NCBI GenBank assembly: GCA_948512295.1
Contig: CAOQRA010000002.1
Span: forward strand, 25,877-89,876
Length of the DNA stretch: 64,000 nucleotides
Source: an uncultured Eubacteriales bacterium
Lineage (GTDB): Bacteria > Bacillota > Clostridia > Christensenellales > UBA1242
Direction: 5' to 3'
Both the position numbers and the translations under genes were made by a program. Positions 3,316-54,804 of the stretch are shown piece after piece. Under the pieces are notes generated by a model. It was not told the origin of the DNA, did not search any database, and worked only from the letters and a program-made list of their open reading frames with translations. Every line of letters starts with the position of its first letter. Positions within the stretch are counted from its first letter, which is position 1.

Positions 3316-3585
3316 ATGCCACAAATTAAATCTGCTGAAAAAAGAGTAAAAATTATCGAAAAAAAGACTGCAGAAAACAAAGCTATCAAGTCTAAAATTG
3401 CAACTTATGCTAAAAAATTCAAGATTGCTGTTGCAAACAACGATGTTGCAGTTGCTGAAGTTGCATATAAAGACGTTGTTTCTTTGATGGATAGCGCAGC
3501 TCGTGATAATGTAATTCATGCAAATAGTGCAAATCGCAAAAAAGCACATTATGCAAAAATGCTTGAGCAGCTTAAAAAGGCTTAA
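3316..3585 (+). CDS. rpsT: 30S ribosomal protein S20
   Basis: MPQIKSAEKRVK... N-terminus, basic 89-aa protein, AGGAG RBS. Confidence 0.95.
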   Translation: MPQIKSAEKRVKIIEKKTAENKAIKSKIATYAKKFKIAVANNDVAVAEVAYKDVVSLMDSAARDNVIHANSANRKKAHYAKMLEQLKKA

Positions 3586-3609
3586 ATATTAGTCTTAATT
3601 TTTGCAATG

Positions 3610-3638
3610 ACACTCTTCCTTTTGGGAGGGTGTTTTTT
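3610..3638 (+). terminator. Rho-independent terminator of rpsT
   Basis: Stem ACACTCTTCC/GGGAGGGTGT followed by a T6 run. Confidence 0.6.
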
Positions 3639-3833: not shown

Positions 3834-4388
3834 ATGAACGCGTTATATTTATTTATTCCTACATTTTTAATTATCCTTTTGATTTTACCTATTAAAATTC
3901 AACTTCGCGGGACATTCCATTTGGAAGATTTAAGCGGTGTAATTTGTTTATTCCTATTTAAAATAAAATTACGCTATTACAAGTACAAAGTAGATGGCAA
4001 AAAAATAGTATTAAAAAATGAAAAAGAAACCAAGATCAAGCAACTTGATTTTGATCCTAAGCAGCTTGTGGTGGTCAAGATTTTTAAAGACCAACTTAAA
4101 GATAAGGCGCGCGTTAAAGAACTTTTTGTCTTCTATAACATAGGACTTAATGATGCTTTTTTATCCTCCATGGTAGGTGGACTTATTAACTGTGCGCTCC
4201 TAGGATATTTTACCAATTTAAAAAACAGGAGGCCGACTGCTTCAATGGGTATTTATGACACCATCTCATATAACAAGGAAGTTTTCGAGGTTGCAGGTAA
4301 AGGTAGCATAAGTATTAGTTTATTTGATGTTGTATATTCTTTGATAATGTCGGTTATTCTAATTAAGAGATTAAGTTCTAAGAGGTGA
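3834..4388 (+). CDS. YtfI-like (DUF2953-type) sporulation membrane protein
   Basis: N-terminal TM segment. Immediately upstream of, and co-oriented with, the ytfJ homologue. Family call by resemblance only. Confidence 0.5.
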   Translation: MNALYLFIPTFLIILLILPIKIQLRGTFHLEDLSGVICLFLFKIKLRYYKYKVDGKKIVLKNEKETKIKQLDFDPKQLVVVKIFKDQLKDKARVKELFVFYNIGLNDAFLSSMVGGLINCALLGYFTNLKNRRPTASMGIYDTISYNKEVFEVAGKGSISISLFDVVYSLIMSVILIKRLSSKR

Positions 4389-4785: not shown

Positions 4786-5926
4786 GCCGTTAATTGCACT
4801 GTCTTTATGTGTACTATTAGCCGTTGCTGCACTTTTGTCTGCTGTTATGGGCTCGATTATGCTTACTACAAAAGTGTCAATGGCGGAAGGATATACCTCA
4901 GCTAAAGGAATGTGCGTTATGGAAGCTTCTTCAAAGAGGGTGCTTTATAGTAAGAATGAAAACAAGCAAATGCCGATGGCAAGCACCACTAAAATTATGA
5001 CTGCGATAACTGCCATTGAAAATGCTGCTGACCTTGATGAAAAATTTGAAATTTCGCCTAAGTCAATCGGAATAAGTGGTACAAGCATTTATTTACGCGA
5101 AGGGGAGGCGCTTTCTTTACGAGAACTACTTTATGGACTTATGCTTGTGTCTGGCAATGATGCGTCTGTAGCAATTGGAGAGCGAGTTTCAGGGAGTAAG
5201 GAAGCTTTTGTAGAACTTATGAACACTACAGCAAAAAAGATAGGGGCTAACAATTCCCACTTTGCAAACACGCATGGACTAGATGAAGAGGGGCATTATA
5301 CTACCGCGTATGACCTTGCTAAAATTACAAGCTATGCGCTTGCTAATGATACCTTTAAAGAAATCGTTTCTACTCGTAACACAAAAATAGTTAACACTGA
5401 TGGGAAAACTAGATATTTGAAAAACAAAAATCGTCTGCTAAATAGTTTAGACGGTTGTAACGGAGTTAAAACCGGCTTTACAGATGATGCGGGGCGTTGC
5501 CTTGTGTCCTCTTGCGAGCGTGACGGCATGCAACTTGTATGTGTCGTGTTAAATTGCGGGCCAATGTTTGAAGAGAGTGCACAACTGCTTGAGCAAGGGT
5601 TTAAAGACTATAAAATGGTGGATGTAACCAAAGGTTATAGTTATCCTAAGTTTATACGAGTGGAAGGCGGAGTTAAGGAGTTTGTAGAGCTTGGCACGAG
5701 TGGAAGCTTTCTTTATCCATTAAAAGAGGGAGAACTAGAGAAAATAAGCTTTAAGTATAAAATGCCTAATGTTATTGCTGCACCAACTAAAAAAGGACAA
5801 GAAGTTGGAGAAATTAAAGTTTATTTCGGTAATGACTTGCGTTTTACTGAAAAAATATATACAATGGAAGATGTAAGGGGAAATACCATTTTAGACAAGA
5901 TTAAAAACCTCTTTAGAAAATGGTAA
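4769..5926 (+). CDS. D-alanyl-D-alanine carboxypeptidase (PBP5-type serine peptidase)
   Basis: SxxK (ASTTK), SxN (SGND) and KTG (KTGFT) motifs, plus a signal-anchor. GTG at 4769 sits 6 nt after AGGAGG; the track ORF starts at TTG 4748. Confidence 0.85.
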   Translation: MKAKIKPLIALSLCVLLAVAALLSAVMGSIMLTTKVSMAEGYTSAKGMCVMEASSKRVLYSKNENKQMPMASTTKIMTAITAIENAADLDEKFEISPKSIGISGTSIYLREGEALSLRELLYGLMLVSGNDASVAIGERVSGSKEAFVELMNTTAKKIGANNSHFANTHGLDEEGHYTTAYDLAKITSYALANDTFKEIVSTRNTKIVNTDGKTRYLKNKNRLLNSLDGCNGVKTGFTDDAGRCLVSSCERDGMQLVCVVLNCGPMFEESAQLLEQGFKDYKMVDVTKGYSYPKFIRVEGGVKEFVELGTSGSFLYPLKEGELEKISFKYKMPNVIAAPTKKGQEVGEIKVYFGNDLRFTEKIYTMEDVRGNTILDKIKNLFRKW

Positions 5927-10732: not shown

Positions 10733-10747
10733 AGTTTTCGCTCTTGT

Positions 10748-10823
10748 GCTGCTGTGGCTCAGTTGGTAGAGCAGCTGATTCGTAATCAGCAGGTCGGCGG
10801 TCCGAGTCCGCTCAGCAGCTCCA
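10748..10823 (+). tRNA. tRNA-Thr (anticodon CGT)
   Basis: Hand-folded cloverleaf. Acceptor GCTGCTG/CAGCAGC, D arm GCTC-AGTTGGTA-GAGC, anticodon arm GCTGA-TTCGTAA-TCAGC, T arm GGCGG-TCCGAGT-CCGCT. Discriminator T and encoded CCA. Confidence 0.9.
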
Positions 10824-11903: not shown

Positions 11904-12248
11904 TCATTTTTTCATTTTTATAATTTGGCAAAGAGCTTCTTTTTCAGATTTTGACATGTTACGAATTAATTCCAAAAGTTCCTTATCTTCATCATATTTA
12001 GTTAAGTCATAATAAAACAACTCACTTGGAGTTATTTCTAACAAATCAATGAGGGCAAAAAGTGTTGTAGAATTTATATTGATATCACCAGCTTCAACTC
12101 TATAATACCAACTTTCGGTATATCCTAACCTTAAACTTACTTCCCTTGCCGATAAATTCCTTTTATTGCGAAAATAACCTAATCTATTAATAAGATCCTT
12201 TAACCCATTGTGATAGTCTAGTTCGGTTGTATGCTTCATATTTTTCAC
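11904..12248 (-). CDS. XRE-family helix-turn-helix regulator (candidate prophage repressor)
   Basis: HTH_XRE signature RNKRNLSAREVSLRLGYTESWYYRVEAGDININSTTLFALIDLLEITPSELF. Divergent from the + strand genes. Confidence 0.8.
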   Translation of the reverse strand: MKNMKHTTELDYHNGLKDLINRLGYFRNKRNLSAREVSLRLGYTESWYYRVEAGDININSTTLFALIDLLEITPSELFYYDLTKYDEDKELLELIRNMSKSEKEALCQIIKMKK

Positions 12249-12392
12249 CTCTTATTATATTTTAAAACGGCATACAAGTAGGTGGTTTTAATTTAATGTT
12301 GGTATTTTATAAAAATCTTTCATAAAATGTGGAATAATTTTTAATTTTATGTTATAATGCTTGTAAAATATAACATAAAAGGAAAAACTGCT

Positions 12393-12905
12393 ATGAAAAT
12401 TGCAATGGTTACAGGTCATAGACCAAAAGGGTTAAATAAAGTAATGAAGTACGGAGATTATGATGATATCCAATTTATGGAGTATGTAGAATCAATGGGT
12501 TACATTGTAGACAAACACCTAAGAGATGGCTACGATTTATTTATCAGCGGAGGAGCAATAGGTGTTGATTTAGACTTTGCAGAAATGGTGCAACATCTTC
12601 GTGGAACAAAGTATTCACATGTAAAGCTTGAAATTGCAATACCATGCGATAATCAAGATTTAAAATGGAGTCTAGACGATAAACAAAGATACAAAGAAAT
12701 CTTGGCTGATGCAGAAATTATAACTCAAGTTGGCCATAAATTTACATCTTGGTGCATGCAAAAACGAAATGAGTATATGGTAGATAAAGCAGATAAAGTC
12801 ATAGCATTTTGGAATGGAGAAGAACATGGCGGAACTTGGAACACAATTCAATATGCAAAAAAACGAGGCAAAGAGATAGAAATTATAGACTTGAGAAGTC
12901 TATAA
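12393..12905 (+). CDS. YpsA-like SLOG (DUF1273) family protein
   Basis: VTGHRP, ISGGAIGVDLDFAE and KRNEYMVDKADKVIAFWNGEEHGGT are colinear with the Bacillus YpsA architecture. Confidence 0.7.
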   Translation: MKIAMVTGHRPKGLNKVMKYGDYDDIQFMEYVESMGYIVDKHLRDGYDLFISGGAIGVDLDFAEMVQHLRGTKYSHVKLEIAIPCDNQDLKWSLDDKQRYKEILADAEIITQVGHKFTSWCMQKRNEYMVDKADKVIAFWNGEEHGGTWNTIQYAKKRGKEIEIIDLRSL

Positions 12906-12964
12906 GAAAGAAAACATTCCATTTTGGCTAAAAATGGTGTATGCTATTAATGGAGATTTTAATC

Positions 12965-13540
12965 ATGAAAAACTATAATGGACGAACTAGATGCCGTACG
13001 CAAGTACAGCTAGAAATGTCTGATCTAGTGACTAAAAAAGAGTCAGTAGCAGACAAAACAGCGACTGCACAAGGAGTCGCAAAGGCTAATCATAAGCCAT
13101 ACAAAGAAACCAATATTATAAAAGATGAGCAAGCAGAACTTGACTTGCCATTGCAAGTGCCGGAAGATTCTAGTGAATTGTTTGTCATAACTAAGGTAAA
13201 AAAATTGGCTGCCTATGTGATAACGGTTACAGAGAAATCACCTAAACGATTTCGTGCTGTTTTTGTCAATCGTATGCAAAACTATTGTCTTGACTGCCTA
13301 GAATATTTGATTGAAGCTAACAGCTTAAGATTAGATAACACGGAAAACATACGAAAACGAAAAGATTGTCAACACAATGCGTACATGAAACTTAAATTAT
13401 TAGGCTACATGTCATTTTTATCACTAGAAAGCGAATGCATATTGAAAAAACAATATGAACAGATATCATTGCAAGTGGCAGATAGCATAAATCTACTTGT
13501 CGCTTGGAGAAGAAGTGATGCCAATCGAATTGGCAAATAA
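12965..13540 (+). CDS. avd: DGR accessory variability determinant (Avd-like four-helix bundle) with an N-terminal extension
   Basis: C-terminal ~120 aa (KSPKRFRAVFVNRMQNYCLDCLEYLIEAN ... QISLQVADSINLLVAWRRS) matches the Avd / 23S-IVS-protein pattern. Sits directly upstream of TR. The start could also be 12941. Confidence 0.7.
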   Translation: MKNYNGRTRCRTQVQLEMSDLVTKKESVADKTATAQGVAKANHKPYKETNIIKDEQAELDLPLQVPEDSSELFVITKVKKLAAYVITVTEKSPKRFRAVFVNRMQNYCLDCLEYLIEANSLRLDNTENIRKRKDCQHNAYMKLKLLGYMSFLSLESECILKKQYEQISLQVADSINLLVAWRRSDANRIGK

Positions 13541-13597
13541 CAACGGATTAACGCGGTGACGCTTTAATTAAGGTAAGATTGATTATGGTTAGTGGCT

Positions 13598-13702
13598 TTT
13601 GGCTGCGCTCGGCCTATTCTAAAAATAATGCTAACAAAATAAATTATGACGGCGACCTTAACAATAATAATGCTAACAAAACCGTCCTAGGCCTGTGTCC
13701 CG
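13598..13702 (+). repeat. DGR template repeat (TR)
   Basis: 105 nt, homologous to 15253-15356. Asn-rich (AAT/AAC) when read in the VR frame. 13 of 14 substitutions versus VR fall on its adenines. Confidence 0.85.
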
Positions 13703-13918
13703 ATTTGCCTTTGAAGAACAAACAAGGTTTGTTAAAAAACAACCAGAAGTGGTCAATATCAAGTGAATTGATCGAGTGTGTAAGGCAAAGGAATCTTACT
13801 CTTTTCTAGTAACTTACCTAAAGTACTAGAAGAAAACGACCATCTCGACAACCAACGCGAAAGTTTTGGAAGTTTACCGCAAGGGAGATGGTCAAATTTA
13901 ATAATACAAGGAGTGGCT

Positions 13919-14944
13919 ATGCTGAAAGAGGCTTTTACATTTGAAAAATTGCTAACTGCACATAAAAGATGCAGAAGATCTAAGCAACACAAGACAGAAA
14001 CCATTTCTTTTGAAATAAATTTATCTGCAACACTAGTAGAATTGTCAAAAAGGTTATTAAATATGACCTATAAACCGGGTAAGTATAAAGAATTTAAAAT
14101 TTTTGAACCAAAAGAGAGAACTATTGAAGCCTTATCATATAAAGACAGAGTTGTGCTAATGGCACTTTGCAGCAACATTATTGAACCGAAAGTCGAAAAA
14201 TACTTGATATTTGATAATGTAGCATGTAGAAAGAATAAAGGTACTCTTTTTGGTATAAAACGATTGGAAGGTTTTTTACATGATTATTATAGAAAATTTG
14301 GGCATAAAGGGTATTTTTTGAAATGCGATATAAAAAAATATTTTCAAAGCATTGATCACAACATGCTCATTGAAAAATTGAAAAAAACCGATTTAGATAA
14401 TGAAGACTTATTGATAATTAAAACTATTATTGACAGCAAGAATGCTGACAGCGGGGTAGGACTCCCTATCGGCAATCAAACAAGTCAATGGTTTGGTTTG
14501 TTTTACTTAAACACAATAGACAGACTTATAAAGGAAAAATTGCAAATAAAATATTATGTTCGCTATATGGATGATATGATATTAATTCACCACGATAAAG
14601 AATATTTAAAGTTTTGCAAAAAAGAAATACAAAGATGTGCTGAAAATGAGTTGCACCTTAAACTAAACAGTAAAACACAAATTGGAACACTTCAAAATGG
14701 AATAGATTTTCTGGGATTTCATCATACACTTTGCGAAACAGGAAAAGTAAAAAGGTTCTTAAGAGGGCAAGCAAAACTAAGAACAAGACGAAAAGTAAAA
14801 CATTTAGCACAATTAAAGAACTCAAAACTAATAACAAAAGATAAGTTAAATCAGAGATTAAATGCCTTGAAAGCGCATGTAATACATTCAAATGCTAAGA
14901 AATTTTACTTAAATTTAACATATAAATACCATTTGCCTAGTTAA
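13919..14944 (+). CDS. DGR-type reverse transcriptase
   Basis: RT motifs include the DGR hallmark LPIGNQTSQ and the catalytic YMDD (YVRYMDDMILIH). AAGGAG RBS. Confidence 0.9.
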   Translation: MLKEAFTFEKLLTAHKRCRRSKQHKTETISFEINLSATLVELSKRLLNMTYKPGKYKEFKIFEPKERTIEALSYKDRVVLMALCSNIIEPKVEKYLIFDNVACRKNKGTLFGIKRLEGFLHDYYRKFGHKGYFLKCDIKKYFQSIDHNMLIEKLKKTDLDNEDLLIIKTIIDSKNADSGVGLPIGNQTSQWFGLFYLNTIDRLIKEKLQIKYYVRYMDDMILIHHDKEYLKFCKKEIQRCAENELHLKLNSKTQIGTLQNGIDFLGFHHTLCETGKVKRFLRGQAKLRTRRKVKHLAQLKNSKLITKDKLNQRLNALKAHVIHSNAKKFYLNLTYKYHLPS

Positions 14945-14958
14945 TTTTTCAAAAAGTA

Positions 14959-14987
14959 TTGCAAAAATTGAAAAAATGTGTTATCAT
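14959..14987 (+). promoter_or_regulatory. Promoter of the VR-bearing gene
   Basis: TTGCAA (14959-14964), 17 nt, TATCAT (14982-14987), preceded by TG. Confidence 0.5.
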
Positions 14988-15017
14988 ATTTAATGAATAA
15001 CATAGGAGGCAACCGCT

Positions 15018-15344
15018 ATGAAATGGACAGATTTAGTAGAAAGAGTTCGAATATCAAACACAGATGAAGATCAAAATACTGGTAATTCATCATTTGATAC
15101 ACAAGATTATGTGTATTTGGACTCTCGTGATGAAGTTAAAAATTGGCAAGCCAATCAAAAGGCAGCAGCTATTACAGACTGGGCATTGATGAATGGCGGT
15201 TTTCACAAATGGGATAGAAAAGCACCAAATGGTGGAAGATGTGTCACCAGTATTTGGCTGCGCTCGGCCTATTCTAAAAGTAATGCTACCAAAGCGATTA
15301 TGACGGCGACCTTTTCACTCATTATGCTCACTAGACCGTCGTAG
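15018..15344 (+). CDS. DGR target module (C-type-lectin/FGE-like fold with VR), currently frameshifted at its 3' end
   Basis: ...DWALMNGG...GGRCVTSIWLRSAYS enters the VR. AGGAGG RBS. The tail after 15294 is out of frame relative to TR (see findings). Confidence 0.7.
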   Translation: MKWTDLVERVRISNTDEDQNTGNSSFDTQDYVYLDSRDEVKNWQANQKAAAITDWALMNGGFHKWDRKAPNGGRCVTSIWLRSAYSKSNATKAIMTATFSLIMLTRPS

Positions 15345-15356
15345 GCCTGTGTCCCG
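15253..15356 (+). repeat. DGR variable repeat (VR) with IMH-like 3' end
   Basis: 104 nt. Identical to TR except at 13 TR-adenine positions, a 1-nt gap and one C/G difference 16 nt from the 3' end. Confidence 0.85.
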
Positions 15357-15387
15357 CTTTACACCTTAATCTTTCATCTTTTCTCTC

Positions 15388-15400
15388 GGCGCGAAGCGCC
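15388..15400 (+). other. GC hairpin downstream of VR
   Basis: GGCGC-GAA-GCGCC, 32 nt past the VR end. Confidence 0.4.
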
Positions 15401-15469
15401 TCGCGTGATTTTGGAAAGGTTGGTGTTGTTAAAGCTAGCAACGGAGATATCATTTCCCACACGATTCAG

Positions 15470-17173
15470 ATGGGGGAATATCCTAAAACAAGAGTAGATT
15501 CAAGAGAAAGAGAAAAATTTGAACAACAATTAAAATCTGGTAAAATAAGAAAAACCGGAAAACAATATTCAGGCTATCGCAAAGATGATGGCTCTTTTGT
15601 CATGCATGATGAATATGAGATTGGTGGGCAAAAATATGTTCGTGTTTATACAAAGCGAGCAGAAGATGGAAACTACTATAACGATGGCACAAAGATGGCT
15701 GATTCTGGAACATGGGAATGGGTAAAAGTTGAACCTGTTGTTTGGCGTGTTAGAAACTGGGATGAACTACCAACTTCAATAAACCCAAAAGGAAATGGCA
15801 GGGCAAAATTTATTGATATTCGAAGCGAAGAAGCCATTATGAGCGGAATTCCATTCTATCCAGATTATGGAGATGATAGAGGTCGTGACACGATGTGGCA
15901 AAATAGTCCAATTCGTGCATTCTTTAATGGGTATGACCTACATAGAGAAATTGATCGTGGAAATGGAAATAAAAAATATAAAAACGAAGAAAGCTTTAAT
16001 TTTAGCGGAAAAGGATTGTTTTCTGAAATATTTGATGGGGCAGAATTATCTCAAACAGCACAAAATATTCAAGAACAAAATGAAGAATTTGAAGCCCCAA
16101 ATCCATATGGTTTCGTTTATGATGACCTAACAAACGATGAACTTTTGAAATTGTATATAAAATCAAATGCAAGCATCTTCTTGCATGGTCCTTCTGGTGT
16201 TGGTAAATCTGGACGAGTAAAACAAATTGATCCAACCGCAACAAGAATTACACTTCGTCCACAGATGAACCCAGAAGAAGTGGATGGAACTCTCGATAGA
16301 GAAACTGGACAATATATACCACCACTTTGGTATACACAACTATGTGAAAAATGTAAAGCAGAACCAGATAGAAAGCATGTATTGTTTATTGATGAGCTTA
16401 CAAATGTTAAACCAACAGTACAAAGTTTAATTTATTCAATAGTTTTAGATCGTGCAGGAAAAGACGGCTTGTGGCCACTTCCAGATAATGCTGTAGTAGT
16501 GGCGGCTGGAAACGAAAGTGCAGACAACCTAGCAGCTTATCCGCTGACAAATGCCTTGTTCAGAAGATTTAGTCATATTTATTATGAAGTAGATAAACAA
16601 TCATGGCTTGACTGGGCAACTGGAATAAGCAAAGTAACAAAGCAAGAACATGTAGAGCATGACAAAACTCCAAGAGCAAGAATTCATCCTGCAATAGTTG
16701 CGTTTGTAATGAGTAGAGATGACGGAATCTTGAACCAAGAACTTGACGAAGAAAACCCACACATCGTTACAGACCCTCGTAAATGGGAAATTGCAAGTCA
16801 GGTGTTATATTCAACAAAGAATCCAAAGGCTCTTGCGCCTGCAATCGGTGAAGAACTTACTGCAGACTTTACTGATTTTGTGCAAAATATTCAATTGTCA
16901 GTAGAAGATGTGGTTAAAGGAAGATATAACGAAAGAGATTTCGTAGAAATGGCAATAGACAGAAAGTTGTCAACCCTTCTTGGGCTAGTGACAGCGGACG
17001 AAAAGAACCTTGGCGTTGTTCGTGGATTTATACAAGAACACCTCGGAAAAGAGATTTTAGCAACTTACGATTCACTTTGGATAAGAAACGATCCAGAAAG
17101 AGCGCAAATAATTGCTGAAACACCAATTCAATTTTTAGATGAGGAGGCCATAAATGGAAAAGCTTTTGAATAA
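15470..17173 (+). CDS. MoxR-like AAA+ ATPase (AAA_5 type) with an N-terminal beta-rich module
   Basis: Walker A LHGPSGVGKS, Walker B HVLFIDELTN, sensor VVVAAGNE, NALFRRFSHI. No SD before ATG 15470, and the frame is open upstream to 15335. Confidence 0.8.
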   Translation: MGEYPKTRVDSREREKFEQQLKSGKIRKTGKQYSGYRKDDGSFVMHDEYEIGGQKYVRVYTKRAEDGNYYNDGTKMADSGTWEWVKVEPVVWRVRNWDELPTSINPKGNGRAKFIDIRSEEAIMSGIPFYPDYGDDRGRDTMWQNSPIRAFFNGYDLHREIDRGNGNKKYKNEESFNFSGKGLFSEIFDGAELSQTAQNIQEQNEEFEAPNPYGFVYDDLTNDELLKLYIKSNASIFLHGPSGVGKSGRVKQIDPTATRITLRPQMNPEEVDGTLDRETGQYIPPLWYTQLCEKCKAEPDRKHVLFIDELTNVKPTVQSLIYSIVLDRAGKDGLWPLPDNAVVVAAGNESADNLAAYPLTNALFRRFSHIYYEVDKQSWLDWATGISKVTKQEHVEHDKTPRARIHPAIVAFVMSRDDGILNQELDEENPHIVTDPRKWEIASQVLYSTKNPKALAPAIGEELTADFTDFVQNIQLSVEDVVKGRYNERDFVEMAIDRKLSTLLGLVTADEKNLGVVRGFIQEHLGKEILATYDSLWIRNDPERAQIIAETPIQFLDEEAINGKAFE

Positions 17174-17534
17174 AATAGAAAAATTGTCCGCAGTATCGCC
17201 AGTCCTCGTAACGGGGATAAAGAAGGAGTGTTTTAAAAATGCAGAGATTCTGCCAGCAAATATTGCTTCTAAAGATTTGGGCATTGTAAATACAAGCAAA
17301 GGACTAAAAGCACCTAAGTGGTTTGTGCGTGTTATGAAAGATGATATTAGCACCATAGTCATAGACGGAATTGACAGCATTGACACCGAGTCTCAAGAAA
17401 AATTTTATGAGTTATTAAAATATAAGACAATTTCAAGCATTGAGTTTTATAAAGAAATAAAAATAGTAGTTTTGTACGAAGATTTGAAAAAAGTATCTCC
17501 TAGCATATTAAGTCTTTGCCAAATCATGAAGTAG
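17154..17534 (+). CDS. Small protein with degenerate P-loop-like motifs
   Basis: AGGAGG RBS; overlaps the upstream stop by 20 nt. VLVTGIKKEC and TIVIDGIDSI...QEKFYELLK resemble decayed Walker A/B and lid elements. Confidence 0.55.
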   Translation: MEKLLNKIEKLSAVSPVLVTGIKKECFKNAEILPANIASKDLGIVNTSKGLKAPKWFVRVMKDDISTIVIDGIDSIDTESQEKFYELLKYKTISSIEFYKEIKIVVLYEDLKKVSPSILSLCQIMK

Positions 17535-17541
17535 GTGCGAA

Positions 17542-19047
17542 ATGGCAGAATTCGATCTTACAACAATAAAAAGAAAGATGCTTAGAAAATACCCAGCGTT
17601 TGGGTCTACTATTTCATCCGTAAAATATCAAATTGTCGGAAACAACCATCCGGTAAAAACTGCTGCAACAGATGGCAAAACTATTTATTGCAACGAAACA
17701 TACCTTGGAACATTATCAGAAGATCAGCAAGTGTTTGTCTTTGCACATGAAGTTTGTCATATTGCATTAAATCATATTATGCGTAGCGAAGGAAAAGATC
17801 CAGAACTTTGGAATATAGCCACAGATGCAGTTATTAATGAACATTTGCAAAAAGATGGCTTGCCAATGGTTGAGGGCGGTGTGGATATTAAAGGCGCACT
17901 CAAATACGATGCCGAAGAACTATACCAAAAATTGCTTGCAGAAAAGCAAAAACAACAAGCAGAGCAGAATCAGCAACAGCAAGGAAGTTCTGCTGAGCAA
18001 AAACAAGAGCAGCAAGGACAAAACGGACAACAGCAGAACCAACAACAAGGGCAAGGACAAGGTTCTGGTTCAAGCGAACAAGATAAGCAAGAATCTGGGC
18101 AAGATCAATCTCAGCAAAATAGCCAAGGTCAAGGACAAGGAAACTCTGAAGAAACTGGAGAGTCAAGTTCACAAGGTGCTGGTGGAAACGGCGAAGAACA
18201 AGAGAATCACGATGTTGGACATGACGCTCACTCTCTTTGGGAAGAAGCTATAAAAGAGGCAAAAGAAGAAAAAGAGAAGAAACAAGGAAAAGGCAAAGGA
18301 CAAGAAAAACAAGATGAGTCCCAAGATGAAGCCGAGCAAGAAGTAATTTCTGAAAAAGAAGCCTTTGAAAAGAATGATGAAGAAAAGATTAAGCGTGCCG
18401 AAGAAATTATGAGCAAACTATCTACAGGTCGTAGAGGTGTAGGTGGAAGTTCTCAAGAAGTTTATTTTGATGATATTGGAAAAGCTGGGAAGGCTGTGGT
18501 CAACTGGAAAAAACTTTTACAAAGAACTCTAGAATTTGAAGATGAAACATGGGGGCATAAATTCTCAGATAGATCCAACGGCTATGCCGCAAGAATTGAA
18601 GATGTGGAATATGACGAACAAGCAGAATCTGAAATAATTTTGGACACAAGCGGATCTGTCAGCGTTGGGCTATTAAAGAGTTTCTTAAGACAAGTAAAAA
18701 CAATACTGAAAAACTCTTGTATTAGAGTTGGTACTTTCTCAGATAGTTTCCATGGCTTTGTGGAGATAAAAAAAGAGTCCGATATTGACAATTTGAGAAT
18801 AAGAGTCGGTGGTGGAACAAACTTTGATGCCGCAAGTCGTGCATTTTCAAAACGCAAAGATGTGAATAGAATTTGCTTTACAGACGGACAAGATGGTGGC
18901 GATGCTGAGATAAGAGAAAAACGAAAAGACATAGTTTGGATTAGTTTTGAAAATCCAGATTTCAAGCCAGATGATGGAAAAGTTATCTTTGTTCCGGCTA
19001 GCCAAATTCAAGAATTCAAAGTTCAAGAAGAAGAAAGAGAATTATAA
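17542..19047 (+). CDS. Metallopeptidase-like (HExxH) plus vWA domain protein, DUF2201-type
   Basis: N-terminal FAHEVCHIALNH...ATDAVINE. ~130-aa Q/G/S/E low-complexity linker. C-terminal vWA with MIDAS ILDTSGSVS. Confidence 0.8.
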   Translation: MAEFDLTTIKRKMLRKYPAFGSTISSVKYQIVGNNHPVKTAATDGKTIYCNETYLGTLSEDQQVFVFAHEVCHIALNHIMRSEGKDPELWNIATDAVINEHLQKDGLPMVEGGVDIKGALKYDAEELYQKLLAEKQKQQAEQNQQQQGSSAEQKQEQQGQNGQQQNQQQGQGQGSGSSEQDKQESGQDQSQQNSQGQGQGNSEETGESSSQGAGGNGEEQENHDVGHDAHSLWEEAIKEAKEEKEKKQGKGKGQEKQDESQDEAEQEVISEKEAFEKNDEEKIKRAEEIMSKLSTGRRGVGGSSQEVYFDDIGKAGKAVVNWKKLLQRTLEFEDETWGHKFSDRSNGYAARIEDVEYDEQAESEIILDTSGSVSVGLLKSFLRQVKTILKNSCIRVGTFSDSFHGFVEIKKESDIDNLRIRVGGGTNFDAASRAFSKRKDVNRICFTDGQDGGDAEIREKRKDIVWISFENPDFKPDDGKVIFVPASQIQEFKVQEEEREL

Positions 19048-19052
19048 ATATT

Positions 19053-19082
19053 AAGACCTATGGTAGAACATAGGTCTTTTTT
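19053..19082 (+). terminator. Rho-independent terminator ending the DGR/ATPase/vWA operon
   Basis: AAGACCTATG-gtagaa-CATAGGTCTT followed by a T-run. Confidence 0.75.
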
Positions 19083-30731: not shown

Positions 30732-30754
30732 AAAAATATGTTATAATGCTTGTA

Positions 30755-30884
30755 TCCATAAAGAGTGCGTGAGTGACTGACACTATGACCGCACAGCAAC
30801 CTACCATACGGAAAGGTGCTAAAGTCAGACTGATGGGAACAATAATGATGCTGAAAATCCTATCGGAAACGATGGGATTTTTTA
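30755..30884 (+). promoter_or_regulatory. SAM-I (S-box) riboswitch with terminator expression platform
   Basis: AAAGAGTGCGTGAGTGACTGACACTATGA...CAGCAACC...AAAGGTGCTAAAGTC follows the S-box consensus. P1 is CCAT(30756)/ATGG(30833). Terminator is AAATCCTATCG-GAAA-CGATGGGATTT+T-run (30855-30884). Alternative antiterminator pairing is GATGGGA(30832-38)/TCCTATC(30858-64). TGtTATAAT promoter at 30739-30747. Confidence 0.75.
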
Positions 30885-30926: not shown

Positions 30927-32018
30927 ATGAGAAAAATTTTGACAAGTGAAAGTGTGAACATTGGGCATCCGGATAAGACATGCGACTGCATTGCAGATGC
31001 CTTTTTGGACGAAGCACTCAAACAAGATCCAAACGCACAAATGGCAGTGGAGTGTGCAATCAAAGATGATTTGCTTATGATTTATGGAGAATCGACAACA
31101 ACAGCAAAGATTGACTATTCAGCAATCGCAAATGAGATTTTGAAAGAAGTTGGCTATACAAAGCCATTTAGAATCATCACACAGATAAGCGAGCAAAGTC
31201 CGGATATTCACCAAGCAGTTGTGAAAGAAGAACTGAGAGCAAACGACCAAGGAATTGTCTATGGTTACGCATGCAACGAAACAAAAGAGCTGATGCCAAT
31301 GCCAATTATAATTGCACACAAACTTATGAAAAGATATGAAGAATTCAGAAAGAGAAGAGTAGACTTTTTTGCGGATGCCAAAAGCCAAGTCAGCATTGAA
31401 TATGGCGAAGATGAACAACCAAATGGAATTGCGACAGTGCTTGTATCTGCAAGCCACGCAGAGAATTTGACAAAGGAAGAAGTTCGCAACATAATTGCGG
31501 AAGAAGTCATCGCACCGGTTATTGCTGAATACGCAGACCTTATCACAGCTGAAACTGAACTCATCGTCAATCCAAGTGGAAAGTTTACTATATGGGGAAG
31601 CTATGGCGACAGCGGTTGCGTTGGAAGAAAAATTGTTGTTGATACCTATGGCGGAATCGGCAGAGTGGGCGGCGGTTGTTTCTCAAGCAAGAATGCAACA
31701 AAGGTTGACCGCAGCGGAGCATACTATGCAAGGTTTGTAGCCAAGAACATTGTGGCAAATGGATATGCTGACAAGTGCGAAATCCAAGTTGCATACGGCA
31801 TCGGACTTGCAGAGCCAATCTCGGTCAATATTGAAACATTCGGAACAAACAAGAAACCGCAACAAGAAATTGAAAACTATGTGGAAAAGAACTTTGATTT
31901 CAGACCAGCGATCATCATCAAGGAACTTGGCTTGCTGAAACCTATATACAAACAAACAGCATGCTATGGACATTTCGGCAGAGAAGAGTTCCCATGGGAA
32001 CAAATAAAGAAAGACTAG
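30927..32018 (+). CDS. metK: S-adenosylmethionine synthetase (prophage-encoded)
   Basis: SESVNIGHPDKTCDCIADAFLDEAL, NDQGIVYGYA, DAKSQVSIEY, GGGCFSSKNATKVDRSGAYYARFVAKNIV. Confidence 0.9.
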   Translation: MRKILTSESVNIGHPDKTCDCIADAFLDEALKQDPNAQMAVECAIKDDLLMIYGESTTTAKIDYSAIANEILKEVGYTKPFRIITQISEQSPDIHQAVVKEELRANDQGIVYGYACNETKELMPMPIIIAHKLMKRYEEFRKRRVDFFADAKSQVSIEYGEDEQPNGIATVLVSASHAENLTKEEVRNIIAEEVIAPVIAEYADLITAETELIVNPSGKFTIWGSYGDSGCVGRKIVVDTYGGIGRVGGGCFSSKNATKVDRSGAYYARFVAKNIVANGYADKCEIQVAYGIGLAEPISVNIETFGTNKKPQQEIENYVEKNFDFRPAIIIKELGLLKPIYKQTACYGHFGREEFPWEQIKKD

Positions 32019-51761: not shown

Positions 51762-53249
51762 ATGAAAAGAATAATCATACACACGGCAACGCAAACAGAA
51801 ATAGTTCCGGTGTGTGCTTATGCCAGAGTTTCAACCGACAAAGACGAGCAAGAAGAAAGTTATTATGTTCAAGAAAGTTATTGGACGAACAAACTGCTTG
51901 CCGAGCCTTTATATCACTTTATAGGCATGTTCGGTGACGAAGCTGTGTCAGGAGCAACGCAACGGAAACGCAGAGGTTTCCTAGAAATGATTAAACTTTG
52001 CAGAATGGGGAGAATCAAAAAGATTTTCACCAAAAGCGTTGCAAGATTTGGAAGAAATTCAAATGAAACTTTGAAAACAATCAAAGAACTACGAGAAATC
52101 GGTGTAACAGTGTATTTTGAGTCAGACGAAATCGACACCTCACAACTGACAGATGAATTGATGCTCAGATTGAAATCAATCCTTGCTGAAGAAGAACTGA
52201 AAACCATGAGTAATAATGTGAAATGGAGCGCTAGAAAGCGATTCAGCGAGGGGAGCATCGAATTAGTAAACCTTTATGGTTACAACATAATTCGAGAAAA
52301 TAAGAGAGTTCGTTTGACAGTAAATGAAGAAGAAGCGAAAGTGGTGCGAAGAATTTTTCAAATGTACTTGGACGGAATGGGAATTCAAAGAATCGCAAAC
52401 ATCCTAACCGATGAAAACATTCCCACTAAGAAAAATAGTTTGGGCTGGTGTAGAAGTCAAGTTGCTGGCATGCTCAAGCAAGAGAAATACATTGGAGATG
52501 CTTTGCTACAAAAGAACTACACAGATGGACACGGAAAGATGATAGGGAACAAGGGTGAACTTATGCAGTTCTATGTAGAGAACGACCATGAGCCAATTAT
52601 TGACAAAGAAACATTCAATAAAGTGCAAGCAGAGATGGCTTATAGAGCCACGATAATACAAACTGACACTGTCAAAAAGTTTACAGAGTTCTCTGGGAAA
52701 ATTGAGTGTGGTCACTGCGGAAAACACTATGGAAGAAAAATCAATAGCAAAATAAGAAACTTTGGCAATGCCGGGTGGATATGTAGAACGGCAAACACAA
52801 GGGGTATGGCGGCATGCCCATCAAATACGATAAATGAAGATTTGCTAAAAGCGATAACTGTGGATGCATACAACGAGTATTTGGCAACACCAAAAGAAAA
52901 TGATAACACAGCGAGCATAGAGCAAGAAATTGCTGAACTTGTAACACAAGAAAACAAAGTTCGACAGTTGTGGCAAGATGGGAAAATTTCATACTCAGCA
53001 TTCACAAACGCACAAAAGGAACTCAAAGATAGGTACAAGGACTGCGATGACAGAATTGTACAAGAGCAAGGATTTGAGTTATACGCCAAGGAGGGGAAAG
53101 TTGCTGACAGTTACGATCCACAGATAGTGGAAAAGCACATTGAGAAAATAATAATAAACGGCTTCAAAATAAGGTTCGTTTTCAAGAATAAACAAGAAAT
53201 TGAAAAGGGGTGGAAATATGAGCATAGAAGATATTGCAAAGCCTACTAA
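51762..53249 (+). CDS. Large serine recombinase 1
   Basis: Resolvase catalytic domain (CAYARVSTDKDEQ), recombinase domain, zinc ribbon (CGHCGKHYGRK...CPS) and coiled-coil tail. Confidence 0.9.
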   Translation: MKRIIIHTATQTEIVPVCAYARVSTDKDEQEESYYVQESYWTNKLLAEPLYHFIGMFGDEAVSGATQRKRRGFLEMIKLCRMGRIKKIFTKSVARFGRNSNETLKTIKELREIGVTVYFESDEIDTSQLTDELMLRLKSILAEEELKTMSNNVKWSARKRFSEGSIELVNLYGYNIIRENKRVRLTVNEEEAKVVRRIFQMYLDGMGIQRIANILTDENIPTKKNSLGWCRSQVAGMLKQEKYIGDALLQKNYTDGHGKMIGNKGELMQFYVENDHEPIIDKETFNKVQAEMAYRATIIQTDTVKKFTEFSGKIECGHCGKHYGRKINSKIRNFGNAGWICRTANTRGMAACPSNTINEDLLKAITVDAYNEYLATPKENDNTASIEQEIAELVTQENKVRQLWQDGKISYSAFTNAQKELKDRYKDCDDRIVQEQGFELYAKEGKVADSYDPQIVEKHIEKIIINGFKIRFVFKNKQEIEKGWKYEHRRYCKAY

Positions 53250-54804
53250 TGAAAGAACTATTCGAGCGATTCCAGCACTTCAAGTTGCAAGGAATAATGC
53301 GATAAGACCAGTTAGGGAAGCCGCCTATGCTCGTGTTTCGACCAAAACTGAAGAACAACTGACCAGTTATAAGCTGCAAAAGAAATACTATGAAGAATAT
53401 ATAAAGTCAAAGACCAACACAATTTATGCTGGATTATATTGCGATGAAGAAAGCGGAAAAAGCATAAGCGGAAGAAAGGGGTTCAAGGACTTATTGAGCG
53501 ATTGTAGAGAGGGGAAAATAGACCGAATAATAACAAAGACAGTGAGCCGTTTTGCAAGAAACATGGTGGAATGCATGCAGACTGCTAGAGAACTGAAAAA
53601 CCGTGGCATAACGATATACTTTGAAAGTCAAGGACTAGACACTAAAGACGAGAGTTCATTCGTTATCCTAAGCATATTGGCAGCACTTGCAGAAGAAGAA
53701 ATCCGAACAATTTCAAACAATGTGAAATGGGGTATCCACAAACGATACAAAGAGGGCAAAGTTCACATGAGTGGACGAATGTGCGGATATGAAATCAAGG
53801 GTGGGAAGTTTAGGATAGTGCCGGAAGAGGTGGACACTGTGAAAATGATTTTCAACGATTTCCTTGCTGGCATGACAATAAGGCAAATTGCCAATAAACT
53901 GGAACAACAAGGAATACCATCACCAAGAGGGCATGATAAATGGCAACACACAACAATCCAGAGCATGCTACAGAACGAAAAGTATGTCGGCGATGTTATA
54001 TTGCAGAAAACATTCAAAGTCGATGTGCTAAGTCCAAGACAAGTAAATAACGGTCAAAGAGATAAGTACGAAATAAAAAATAACCATCCGGCAATTATTG
54101 ACAGAGAAATATTCGAAGCTGTGCAAGCAGAATTAAATAGGCGAGAATATGAAAAGATAACACTAGACAGCGAGCGAACACGATATTCGAGTCATTACCC
54201 ATTAAGCACAAAACTTGAATGCGGAGAGTGCGGAACTAAGTTCAGAAGACACAGCCAGCAACATGGAGAAAAGAAAGTTGATATTTGGGTATGCTTGAAA
54301 CACCAAAAACAAAGCGATGAATGCCACATGAAACCAATCAAAGAAAGGGTGGTTGAAGATGCATTCGTGCAAGTTCTAAACGAACTGGTTGCGGACAAGC
54401 AAAGAATTATTGACAATCTTGAGAGAAGTGTGAGGGCTATAATAACAAGCAATCCGATAAAGGACATAAGAGAAATTGAAAACAACTTGATAAGCATTGA
54501 AAGACAAATGATACAAATCAGTACACGCAGTCCGATGACACCTCAAGACCAAGTCGAGATGCAACAACTACAACAAAGAGCAACAGCACTGAGAGAAGAA
54601 ATAACCATTGCAGAGCGACTTAGAGGATCACATGATATGCTAAAACAAAGAGTGAGAGAAATCAGTCAAGTTATAAGATTACCGTATATGCAATACCGTG
54701 GCGACCTATTCCGTAGCCTTGTTGAGAAGGTAGTTATAAACGGAAAGAAAGACCTAAAATTTATCTTTAAATGCGGAATCGAAATGGAATGCCAAGTTGC
54801 ATAA
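53218..54804 (+). CDS. Large serine recombinase 2
   Basis: AAYARVSTKTEEQ catalytic Ser, recombinase domain, zinc ribbon (CGECGTKFRRHS...WVCLKH) and coiled coil. Overlaps the end of gene 1. Confidence 0.9.
   Translation: MSIEDIAKPTNERTIRAIPALQVARNNAIRPVREAAYARVSTKTEEQLTSYKLQKKYYEEYIKSKTNTIYAGLYCDEESGKSISGRKGFKDLLSDCREGKIDRIITKTVSRFARNMVECMQTARELKNRGITIYFESQGLDTKDESSFVILSILAALAEEEIRTISNNVKWGIHKRYKEGKVHMSGRMCGYEIKGGKFRIVPEEVDTVKMIFNDFLAGMTIRQIANKLEQQGIPSPRGHDKWQHTTIQSMLQNEKYVGDVILQKTFKVDVLSPRQVNNGQRDKYEIKNNHPAIIDREIFEAVQAELNRREYEKITLDSERTRYSSHYPLSTKLECGECGTKFRRHSQQHGEKKVDIWVCLKHQKQSDECHMKPIKERVVEDAFVQVLNELVADKQRIIDNLERSVRAIITSNPIKDIREIENNLISIERQMIQISTRSPMTPQDQVEMQQLQQRATALREEITIAERLRGSHDMLKQRVREISQVIRLPYMQYRGDLFRSLVEKVVINGKKDLKFIFKCGIEMECQVA

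Follow-up and report, generated by a model that had tools for sequence, protein, structure and literature searches.

A prophage diversity-generating retroelement with its variable repeat in the lectin-like domain of a MoxR-type ATPase gene

In this work we describe a diversity-generating retroelement (DGR) in a stretch of 64,000 nucleotides from contig CAOQRA010000002.1 of an uncultured Eubacteriales bacterium; this whole stretch is called the window below. The element is a genuine DGR, with an avd gene, a template repeat (TR), a reverse transcriptase (RT) and a target gene in that order, and its variable repeat (VR) sits in a cytoplasmic ATPase and not in a virion protein. We consider it very probable that the element is an active DGR of the avd-TR-RT type which diversifies the DUF6273 domain of a MoxR/NorQ-type ATPase; what the cassette does is the part of this reading that we infer. 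New here is a DGR lineage that targets the N-terminal lectin-like domain of a MoxR-type ATPase within a portable three-gene cassette.

Repeats, retroelement proteins and target gene

The two repeats were compared by direct reading, with a repeat finder and by exhaustive placement of a single gap. The TR has 105 nt, 35 of them adenines, and the VR has 104 nt; their alignment covers both in full and contains 14 substitutions and a single gap of 1 nt. If this gap is put on T13640, 13 of the 14 substitutions fall on TR adenines and the remaining one is C13687 opposite G15341 (hypergeometric P = 1.3e-6 for 13 or more on adenine). All three approaches agree with a preliminary description of this DNA, made by reading the letters alone, which had given the same counts, the same 13 positions and the same fourteenth change. 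Nine equally good gap placements give 12 of 14 substitutions on adenine and one change of a T, so the bias towards adenine is independent of where the gap is put and holds on realignment under all ten best placements.

The TR reads as WLRSAYSKNNANKINYDGDLNNNNANKTV in the frame of the target, the asparagine-rich template that had been noticed before, and its 19 adenine-containing codons allow for about 1e18 possible sequences. A 76-aa open reading frame (ORF) on the forward strand (13579-13809, MIMVSGFWLRSAYSKNNANK...) spans the TR; it is no gene and arises because the TR keeps the frame of the target. Neither repeat end has a third copy in the 64-kb window, and a second VR was likewise not found there. 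As had been remarked before, no tail gene is a target.

In most relatives the two repeats can be told apart by a conserved C in the TR (C13693) versus a G in the VR, within GGC[C/G]TGTGTCCCG. The repeats also end differently in all cassettes, the TR with ...CCCGATTT and the VR with ...CCCGCTTT. The window VR has the TR base, C, opposite C13693, and among the VR alleles this marker has been transferred to some and not to others. It lies six nt downstream of C13687. We also considered C13687/G15341 as the IMH/IMH* difference, and rejected it, since the VR of the relatives has a C there.

The RT carries both motifs that had been reported for it. Its GVGLPIGNQTSQ aligns with GVGIPIGSLTSQ of Brt, the RT of the BPP-1 DGR, and YMDD with YMDD, the IGxxxSQ motif being aligned, and the two proteins are 32% identical over 293 aa (E 6e-47). 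The best PDB chain is 8ub7_A (328 aa, E 9e-39, versus 2e-10 for a group II intron RT), PHROG 1423 matches at E 7e-104, and tblastn searches of deposited phage genomes return the RTs of known DGR phages. Classification with profile models, which the preliminary description had proposed as a check, places the RT under the curated cut-offs of the group II, retron, Drt and Abi models (for group II, 96.7 bits versus a cut-off of 300). The only PADLOC matches in the cassette are those of the RT to generic RT models. We therefore rejected retron, group II and Drt assignments: those matches are far below threshold and the match to Brt is much stronger.

Directly upstream of the TR, the ORF that had been called an Avd-like four-helix bundle matches Avd profiles from three libraries, two of them below threshold (see below); the strongest is PHROG 3206, 'Avd protein of DGR', at E 3e-16. 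The gene is also called at 191 aa in a related prophage (L001), and an Avd homologue lies upstream of the TR in 20 of 22 related DGR-carrying cassettes as well as in L017, introduced below. A PDB sequence search returned nothing above noise, and pairwise BLAST found no similarity to BPP-1 bAvd. Judged from its profile matches and position, the product appears to be a divergent Avd with an N-terminal extension of about 70 aa.

The target had been left unnamed and the span of the element ended at 15400. The real target gene continues to 17173 and is intact, at 718 aa, in relatives. A 'complete' DGR had also been claimed; the order avd-TR-RT-target stands, and the completeness does not, because the gene is split by a frameshift and a TAG in its VR. 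With one nucleotide and the TAG repaired it encodes 718 aa, 98% identical to the intact protein P0001. Hundreds of homologues have the full-length architecture, in which a lectin-like DUF6273 domain at the N-terminus is followed by a beta-rich domain and then by a MoxR/NorQ-like AAA+ ATPase.

The DUF6273-type domain takes up residues 1-130. Modelled with AlphaFold2 (AF2; pLDDT 85), residues 1-132 match many viral DUF6273 models and also the N-terminal DUF6273 domain of the T. ramosa IgA peptidase (9qa6, TMq 0.55). Published work treats DUF6273 as a C-type-lectin-like domain that DGRs target, with the VR at the C-terminal end, and here the VR encodes residues ~80-113, i.e. the C-terminal end of the domain. 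Residues ~134-345 are a beta-rich domain without an assigned type. The AAA+ module, at residues ~370-700, has conserved Walker A and B, sensor-1 and Arg columns; its Pfam AAA_5 match is weak, and PHROG 1297 (ATPase) matches at E 7.5e-39. The AF2 model of the target (pLDDT 80) has NorQ, the MoxR-class partner of the vWA protein NorD, as its best structural match in the PDB, where a sequence search gave no match. Homologous phage proteins have been labelled MoxR ATPase by their depositors.

Two further genes complete the unit (Table 1). The middle one, p126, is conserved beside the ATPase in many loci and has no match in Pfam, PHROG, NCBIfam or PADLOC. The vWA gene follows the ATPase in nearly all related loci. 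Its product matches Pfam DUF2201_N (E 3e-31) and the vWA-like DUF2201 (E 2e-10), with an HExxH motif in DUF2201_N and a DTSGS metal-ion-dependent adhesion site (MIDAS) at residue 368; a PDB sequence search with it gave nothing above noise. HExxH DUF2201_N is the sole effector-like domain in the cassette. By a crude hydropathy test the ATPase, p126 and vWA proteins have no transmembrane segment or signal-like N-terminus.

Two candidate cis elements accompany the repeats. In the spacer of about 210 nt between TR and RT, RNAalifold predicts 25 pairs from 14 cassettes, 17 of them with compensatory changes. Paired cells make up 94% versus 78% in shuffles, and the covariation score is 0.529 versus 0.219 in shuffles and at most 0.195 in slid controls; no Rfam family matches the TR-spacer RNA. 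The other element is a GC-rich hairpin downstream of the VR, which recurs at the same offset in Clostridia-type DGR-carrying cassettes with stems GGCGC, CGCGC, CACGC or CGCAC and loops GAA or GCA (e.g. CGCGC-GAA-GCGCG, CACGC-GAA-GCGTG and CGCAC-GCA-GTGCG). Alphaproteobacterial cassettes have longer analogues, and a cassette without a DGR (L041) keeps the SARSAS peptide encoded there and has lost the stem through synonymous changes. Folding the surrounding 81 nt gives no better energy than shuffles (z 0.44), so the case for the hairpin is one of covariation and position, not of energy; it is likely the target-recognition hairpin. A promoter-like site between RT and target is only a candidate lead, as a promoter scan of the region gave 31 matches where 27 were expected, not above chance.

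Table 1. Features of the cassette, in window coordinates
Feature	Position	Strand	Details
avd	12965..13540	+	191 aa; longer ORF start 12941; four-helix part at residues ~70-190 after a ~70-aa N-terminal extension
Template repeat (TR)	13598..13702	+	105 nt; 19 A-containing codons including 3 stop-prone AAA
Predicted structured DGR RNA spacer	13699..13912	+	helix P1, 13699-13711 (last 4 nt of TR + GATTTGCCTT) with 13782-13791
Predicted spacer hairpins	13717-13722/13728-13733 and 13751-13757/13767-13773	+	RNAalifold, 14 cassettes
DGR reverse transcriptase	13919..14944	+	341 aa; GVGLPIGNQTSQ and YMDD; alternative GTG start 13913
Promoter-like site (candidate)	14959..14987	+	TTGCAA-17-TATCAT with upstream TG; RT-target intergenic gap; consensus match only
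Target gene, interrupted	15018..17173	+	two ORFs, 15018-15344 and 15470-17173; Walker A from 16187, Walker B from 16379
Variable repeat (VR)	15253..15356	+	1-nt deletion between 15294/15295; TAG 15332-15334; G15341 (TR: C); stop of shifted ORF 15342-15344
GC-rich hairpin GGCGC-GAA-GCGCC	15388..15400	+	31 nt after VR; within codons for SARSAS
p126, middle cassette gene	17154..17534	+	126 aa; conserved beside ATPase in many loci
vWA partner protein	17542..19047	+	501 aa; DUF2201_N Zn-peptidase-like (HEVCH from 17746), acidic Q/G/E-rich linker, vWA-like (DTSGS MIDAS from 18643)
Intrinsic-terminator-like hairpin	19053..19078	+	10-bp stem and T run; closes cassette

Variation among relatives and the cassette family

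Natural variation between near-identical genomes demonstrates the activity of the element. The window and L017, the corresponding locus of an independent assembly (GCA_948790855.1), differ at 9 positions over 7,704 nt, all of them within the VR. The TR is identical in the window and in three relatives (L001, L015 and L017), and all four VRs differ. Avd, RT and TR are 100% identical to those of the L001 prophage, in which the target is intact. A protein 98% identical to the repaired target heads a 65-member cluster at 90% identity; when 12 full-length members are compared together with the repaired window sequence, 20 of the 24 variable columns lie in residues 85-111. Within these residues every TR codon that contains an adenine varies, except CTA, where changes of the A are synonymous. 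Codons 109 and 111 vary and are not explained by TR adenines.

The VR alleles are mosaic. Three groups of alleles have identical 3' halves and 5' halves that differ at TR adenine sites, and the converse was never seen (L001, L015, L017; P0001, P0121-P0134). Patchy or partial integration of cDNA around a near-constant core, TTATGACGGCGACCTT, is a possible origin, as are recombination among variants and a chimeric consensus. Exact-pattern scans for the 5' flank of the VR found none in IMG/VR, JGI metagenomes and GTDB representatives, which do not include the source species, and so yielded no further VR alleles.

To what extent is this arrangement a family? With the target alignment as query and each locus scored, a scan of one genome per species found 22 further species-level loci that have avd-TR-RT directly upstream of the ATPase, with TR and VR about 1.65 kb apart. 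Their hosts are metagenome-assembled genomes (MAGs) labelled Clostridia, Christensenella or Eubacteriales, and gut MAGs labelled Alphaproteobacteria. Between 79 and 100% of the mismatches in the TR/VR pairs of the family are on adenine. Over 24 pairs this amounts to 399 of 427 substitutions, with 46% of adenine sites changed versus 1.5% of other sites (odds ratio 55). The RTs of the family are 47-68% identical to that of the window, versus at most 42.5% for any RT in deposited phage records, which suggests that the ATPase-targeting DGRs are one lineage tied to its target.

The cassette is 6 kb long and is spread over two gut bacterial lineages. Among 50,697 deposited phage genomes no record covers at least 80% of the fused target, and a nucleotide search of the same records returned only two fragments of 70-79% identity within the RT gene. 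We found no description of a fused DUF6273-ATPase DGR target in the literature searched.

The cassette is often found outside prophages, and it does not always keep its retroelement. It stands among ordinary cellular genes, with no phage genes within 5 kb, in three genomes (L034, L087 and L012), and relatives such as L021, L032, L039, L040 and L052 have RT remnants or cassettes without a DGR. One DGR-less locus (L013, 2782-11587) has three tandem ATPase paralogues with different N-termini, followed by a small gene and a vWA gene. This array adjoins a type I restriction-modification (R-M) methylase, a SMODS gene and a DUF6602 gene. Three more loci (L009, L010 and L011) are likewise DGR-less, with two or three tandem paralogues. 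Here paralogy seems to take the place of a DGR as the source of diversity, in a setting that resembles a defence island.

The interrupted allele and rival explanations

The target gene of the window is split in two because its VR holds both a frameshift and a premature stop. The 1-nt deletion shifts the frame, so that the ORF from 15018 ends at 15342-15344. The TAG arises from A13678T and A13680G, which together turn an AAA codon of the TR into an in-frame stop. The VR of L017 has this TAG, G15341 and the same 3' half as the window, without the deletion and with a different 5' half. Since L017 has the TAG and not the deletion, the TAG is probably real and the older of the two lesions as far as the alleles tell; the deletion either came later or is an artefact of assembly. 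Retrohoming replaces the segment that holds both lesions, and a later retrohoming event could overwrite the null allele. We also looked at L015 and L016 as independent null alleles and rejected them, as their 567-aa gene calls stem from a scaffold gap and a contig end.

Null alleles are to be expected of these templates. No TR of the family is free of stop-prone codons (AAA, AAG or AGA); each has 2-5 of them. A simple model that takes the mutation frequency and spectrum from the data puts the share of products with a stop at about 21% per complete event for the window TR. Counted on assembled consensus sequences, stops or indels interrupt 9 of 24 VRs (8 of 23 independent ones). This suggests that the target is needed only episodically, or that OFF states are tolerated or useful. 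Two TRs in the family even have an in-frame TAA. These are the alphaproteobacterial L076 (TR 3459-3568) and L078 (TR 3507-3620), whose relatives have TGG (Trp) at this codon; an unmutated copy of either TR would always be null, because the TAA is in its frame. The VRs of both (L076, 5156-5265; L078, 5143-5256) have TGA at the codon that is TAA in the TR. The VR also differs in length from its TR in L019 (+3; 3949-4061), L034 (-6; 5231-5332), L037 (-1; 5192-5298), L082 (+2; 4920-5040) and L085 (+2; 4810-4923), so indels may be a regular by-product of this DGR lineage, or of assembling it.

Could the repeats be an ordinary duplication next to an unrelated retron, group II intron or defence RT? 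The sub-threshold matches of the RT to group II, Drt3a and retron models would allow for this. These are far under their cut-offs, however, and much weaker than the match to Brt; moreover, the mismatches are adenine-specific, strains differ in the VR and share an invariant TR, and the same arrangement occurs in 22 other genomes. We give this explanation virtually no credence. It is very unlikely, too, that the retroelement is inactive and the target an ordinary pseudogene heading for loss. The two lesions in the target, and the RT remnants and DGR-less cassettes of the five relatives named above, fit such a decay. On the other hand, Avd, RT and TR are intact and indistinguishable from those of a prophage with an intact target, and neither lesion reaches beyond the stretch exchanged in retrohoming. 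The TAG is common to the window and L017, yet the two have 9 differences in the 5' half of the VR and none elsewhere in 7.7 kb, so the VR has turned over after the stop arose. A third explanation accepts the DGR and holds that the deletion alone is an artefact of assembly or consensus calling from mixed VR alleles, the real allele having only the TAG. We think this quite possible, at somewhat less than an even chance. It is favoured by L017, otherwise identical over 7.7 kb, with the same 3' half, TAG and G15341 and no deletion, and by the other assemblies that break at the VR (L015 with an N gap, L016 at the end of its contig); such breaks are expected at a hypervariable site in a metagenome. 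Against it, VR indels recur in the five independent cassettes listed above, which makes real DGR-associated indels plausible, and k-mer assemblers make contigs from k-mers that are present in the reads.

Several observations weigh against an active DGR that diversifies a lectin-like domain of this ATPase, or against the role that we propose for the cassette below. The target gene in the window is not intact and nothing in the window shows the cassette in use. The 1-nt deletion may be an assembly artefact, other assemblies breaking exactly at the VR as just mentioned, and the fraction of null VRs is close to the neutral expectation, as if selection on the target were weak or only episodic. The asymmetry of the mosaic alleles is opposite to the BPP-1 model, with its 3' anchor and variable 5' crossover. 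Some profile matches are below threshold: Avd to NCBIfam DivGenRetAVD (E 5.9e-9, 36 bits versus a cut-off of 80) and to Pfam bAvd (E 7.8e-4), and the target to Pfam DUF6273 (22.2 bits versus 23.5). The similarity of the N-terminal domain to canonical C-type lectins (Lcl-CTD, CD94, CD23 and MBP) is weak, with Foldseek E >1. The ATPase, p126 and vWA proteins have no significant match to a defence model in PADLOC-DB 2.0, and neither a VMAP domain nor a VMAP-type third component was detected in the cassette.

Prophage setting, precedents and possible role

The DGR lies in a prophage of about 44 kb, which is bordered by a tRNA-Thr gene (10748-10823) and by two large serine recombinases (51762-54804) and has host genes to its left and right. 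The nearest relatives of these host genes are from uncultured Christensenella, Clostridia and Firmicutes MAGs, at 66-70% amino acid identity. The prophage encodes terminase, portal, major head, tape-measure and tail-fibre proteins. The preliminary description had placed the element in a 'prophage accessory arm'; the prophage stands, and the term is a loose one for the left (early) end, where the DGR lies about 0.7 kb from a divergently transcribed helix-turn-helix repressor (11904-12248), with an SNF2 helicase, a primase and methylases downstream.

Some neighbouring genes are recorded here in passing. Between the repressor and avd is a YpsA/SLOG-family gene (12357-12905, forward strand), which is kept in the L001 and L017 prophages and is elsewhere outside the cassette. 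The two recombinase genes at the right end are adjacent and overlap (51762-53249 and 53200-54804, forward strand). Within the prophage, a SAM-I riboswitch (30753-30839, forward strand; Rfam RF00162, 56 bits, gathering score 44) immediately precedes a phage S-adenosylmethionine (SAM) synthetase gene (30927-32018), which has genes for a C5 DNA methylase, an Amidoligase_2 protein and a ParB-N6 methylase as neighbours. L001 carries the same prophage, otherwise 98.8% identical, and its flanking tRNA-Thr(CGT) gene differs at about 22 of 70 positions with the same anticodon (window 10746-10815 versus L001 1730-1806); this divergence may be an effect of the att site or of tRNA replacement.

By analogy with BPP-1, Avd and RT would bind the TR-spacer RNA, and the 105-nt TR would be copied into cDNA with its adenines misread. 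This cDNA would then replace the homologous VR of 104/105 nt, with the 3' limit in the shared GC-rich end, and the GC hairpin 31 nt downstream would aid target recognition. The ATPase would be co-transcribed with p126 and the vWA/Zn-peptidase-like protein. By analogy with NorQ/NorD and CbbQ/CbbO, and with the systems of two published studies (PMC7159879, PMC10907252), the AAA+ ring may act with the vWA protein on a bound client, which the variable lectin-like tip would recognize and the HExxH domain may cleave. The diversified domain would thus probably direct a MoxR-vWA machine for remodelling or proteolysis to a changing protein or ligand of an opponent, and by the same analogy the lectin-like domain is probably a variable intracellular recognition module.

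How does this compare with systems already described? The BPP-1 DGR (mtd-avd-TR-brt) shares the avd-TR-RT core with its related RT, the IGxxxSQ and YMDD motifs, the adenine-specific changes between TR and VR, GC-rich 3' repeat ends with a TR/VR marker mismatch, and a GC hairpin downstream of the VR. The BPP-1 hairpin is required at the target site, and phage DGR hairpins lie 4-34 bp from the VR (PMC3240598), a range into which the spacing seen here falls; that of BPP-1 has a stem of 7-10 bp and a GRNA loop, whereas the one described here has 5 bp and a 3-nt GNA loop. Unlike in BPP-1, the target is downstream of the RT and not upstream, and it is a cytoplasmic ATPase and not the tail-fibre protein Mtd. 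Here the VR belongs to an N-terminal domain and lies within the gene, which makes both the IMH-like end and the hairpin part of the coding sequence. The TR here also keeps stop-prone AAA codons, and Avd differs from bAvd in its N-terminal extension and its lack of pairwise similarity.

The diversified domain itself has a counterpart in the Faecalibacterium phages Toutatis, Lelie, Roos and Pioen ('tentaclins'). These have gut hosts too, the VR is at the C-terminal end of a DUF6273 C-type-lectin-like domain, and their RTs are 35-37% identical to that of the window. Their targets, in contrast, are virion or receptor-binding proteins, Hoc-like or tail-associated, whereas here DUF6273 is N-terminal on a MoxR-type ATPase of the early region. 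The ATPase has NorQ/NorD and CbbQ/CbbO as MoxR-vWA counterparts, with NorQ the best structural match and an adjacent vWA protein with a MIDAS. Those pairs are metabolic maturation factors, without the lectin-like N-terminal domain, the peptidase-like domain on the vWA partner or the DGR.

Closest among earlier descriptions are the MoxR-vWA ternary conflict systems to which DGRs are linked, known as VMAP ternary systems and reported from cyanobacteria and gammaproteobacteria (Kaur et al. 2020, PMC7159879; Dore et al. 2024, PMC10907252). There, too, a DGR is coupled to an ATPase of MoxR-like type, to a vWA protein and to a third gene, small or an adaptor; prediction places the targets in the cytoplasm, and the diversified lectin-fold domain has been proposed as a sensor (PMC7159879, PMC10907252). 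In these systems, however, the FGS/CLec domain that varies sits at the C-terminus, mostly of the vWA protein or of a separate target, and not at the N-terminus of the ATPase. The vWA protein here has a DUF2201_N Zn-peptidase-like domain, and the VMAP domain is the component missing from our cassette. Their hosts are multicellular bacteria, versus gut MAGs of Clostridia/Christensenella and Alphaproteobacteria, plus a temperate phage, here.

The role of the cassette is most likely, we infer, that of a conflict (defence) system borne by prophages or islands. A counter-defence or host-takeover device of the phage is the main competing idea. In it, the lectin-like domain would recognize variable host proteins, such as immune or replication factors, which the AAA+/vWA-peptidase machine would remodel or cleave, thus widening the intracellular host range. 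The position of the cassette speaks for this, on the strand of the early and replication genes and just past the divergent repressor, in the company of the SNF2 helicase, primase, DNA methylases, amidoligase and SAM synthetase; lytic phages, moreover, commonly have MoxR-type ATPases. Yet the cassette also stands among chromosomal genes in L034, L087 and L012, far from any phage gene, and the DGR-less paralogue arrays lie beside R-M and SMODS genes. Because of these chromosomal sites and neighbours, defence of the cell or prophage fits better than counter-defence, and the same contexts favour a defence or sensor role in general. We would put the chance of a defence or sensor role a little short of even and regard counter-defence as rather unlikely, with the rest left unassigned.

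A bolder version of the defence idea, which we hold only tentatively and think doubtful as a whole, is that the cassette is an undescribed, horizontally mobile and 'programmable' intracellular recognition machine which pre-adapts the prophage or cell. The stops made by the DGR, from TRs that keep AAA, AAG or AGA and even TAA, would then be a reversible OFF switch that limits cost or autoimmunity. If this were true, the substrate-binding tip of an AAA+ remodelling or proteolysis complex would be continuously rewritten against proteins of invading phages or of host defence.

To our knowledge, phage DGRs are known almost only for altering receptor-binding proteins of the virion. The element described here is a phage-borne DGR acting, very probably, on the recognition domain of a cytoplasmic AAA+ ATPase with a vWA/peptidase partner. 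Its internal VR offers a natural case of DGR cis elements, the IMH-like end and the hairpin, under coding constraint. The cassette also makes two questions testable. What do intracellular proteins diversified by DGRs bind? And are the nulls made by DGRs a switch akin to phase variation? If the function is as we propose, the idea of a DGR 'antigen sensor', so far confined to multicellular cyanobacteria and gammaproteobacteria, would reach temperate phages and gut anaerobes, with the sensor mounted on the motor itself.

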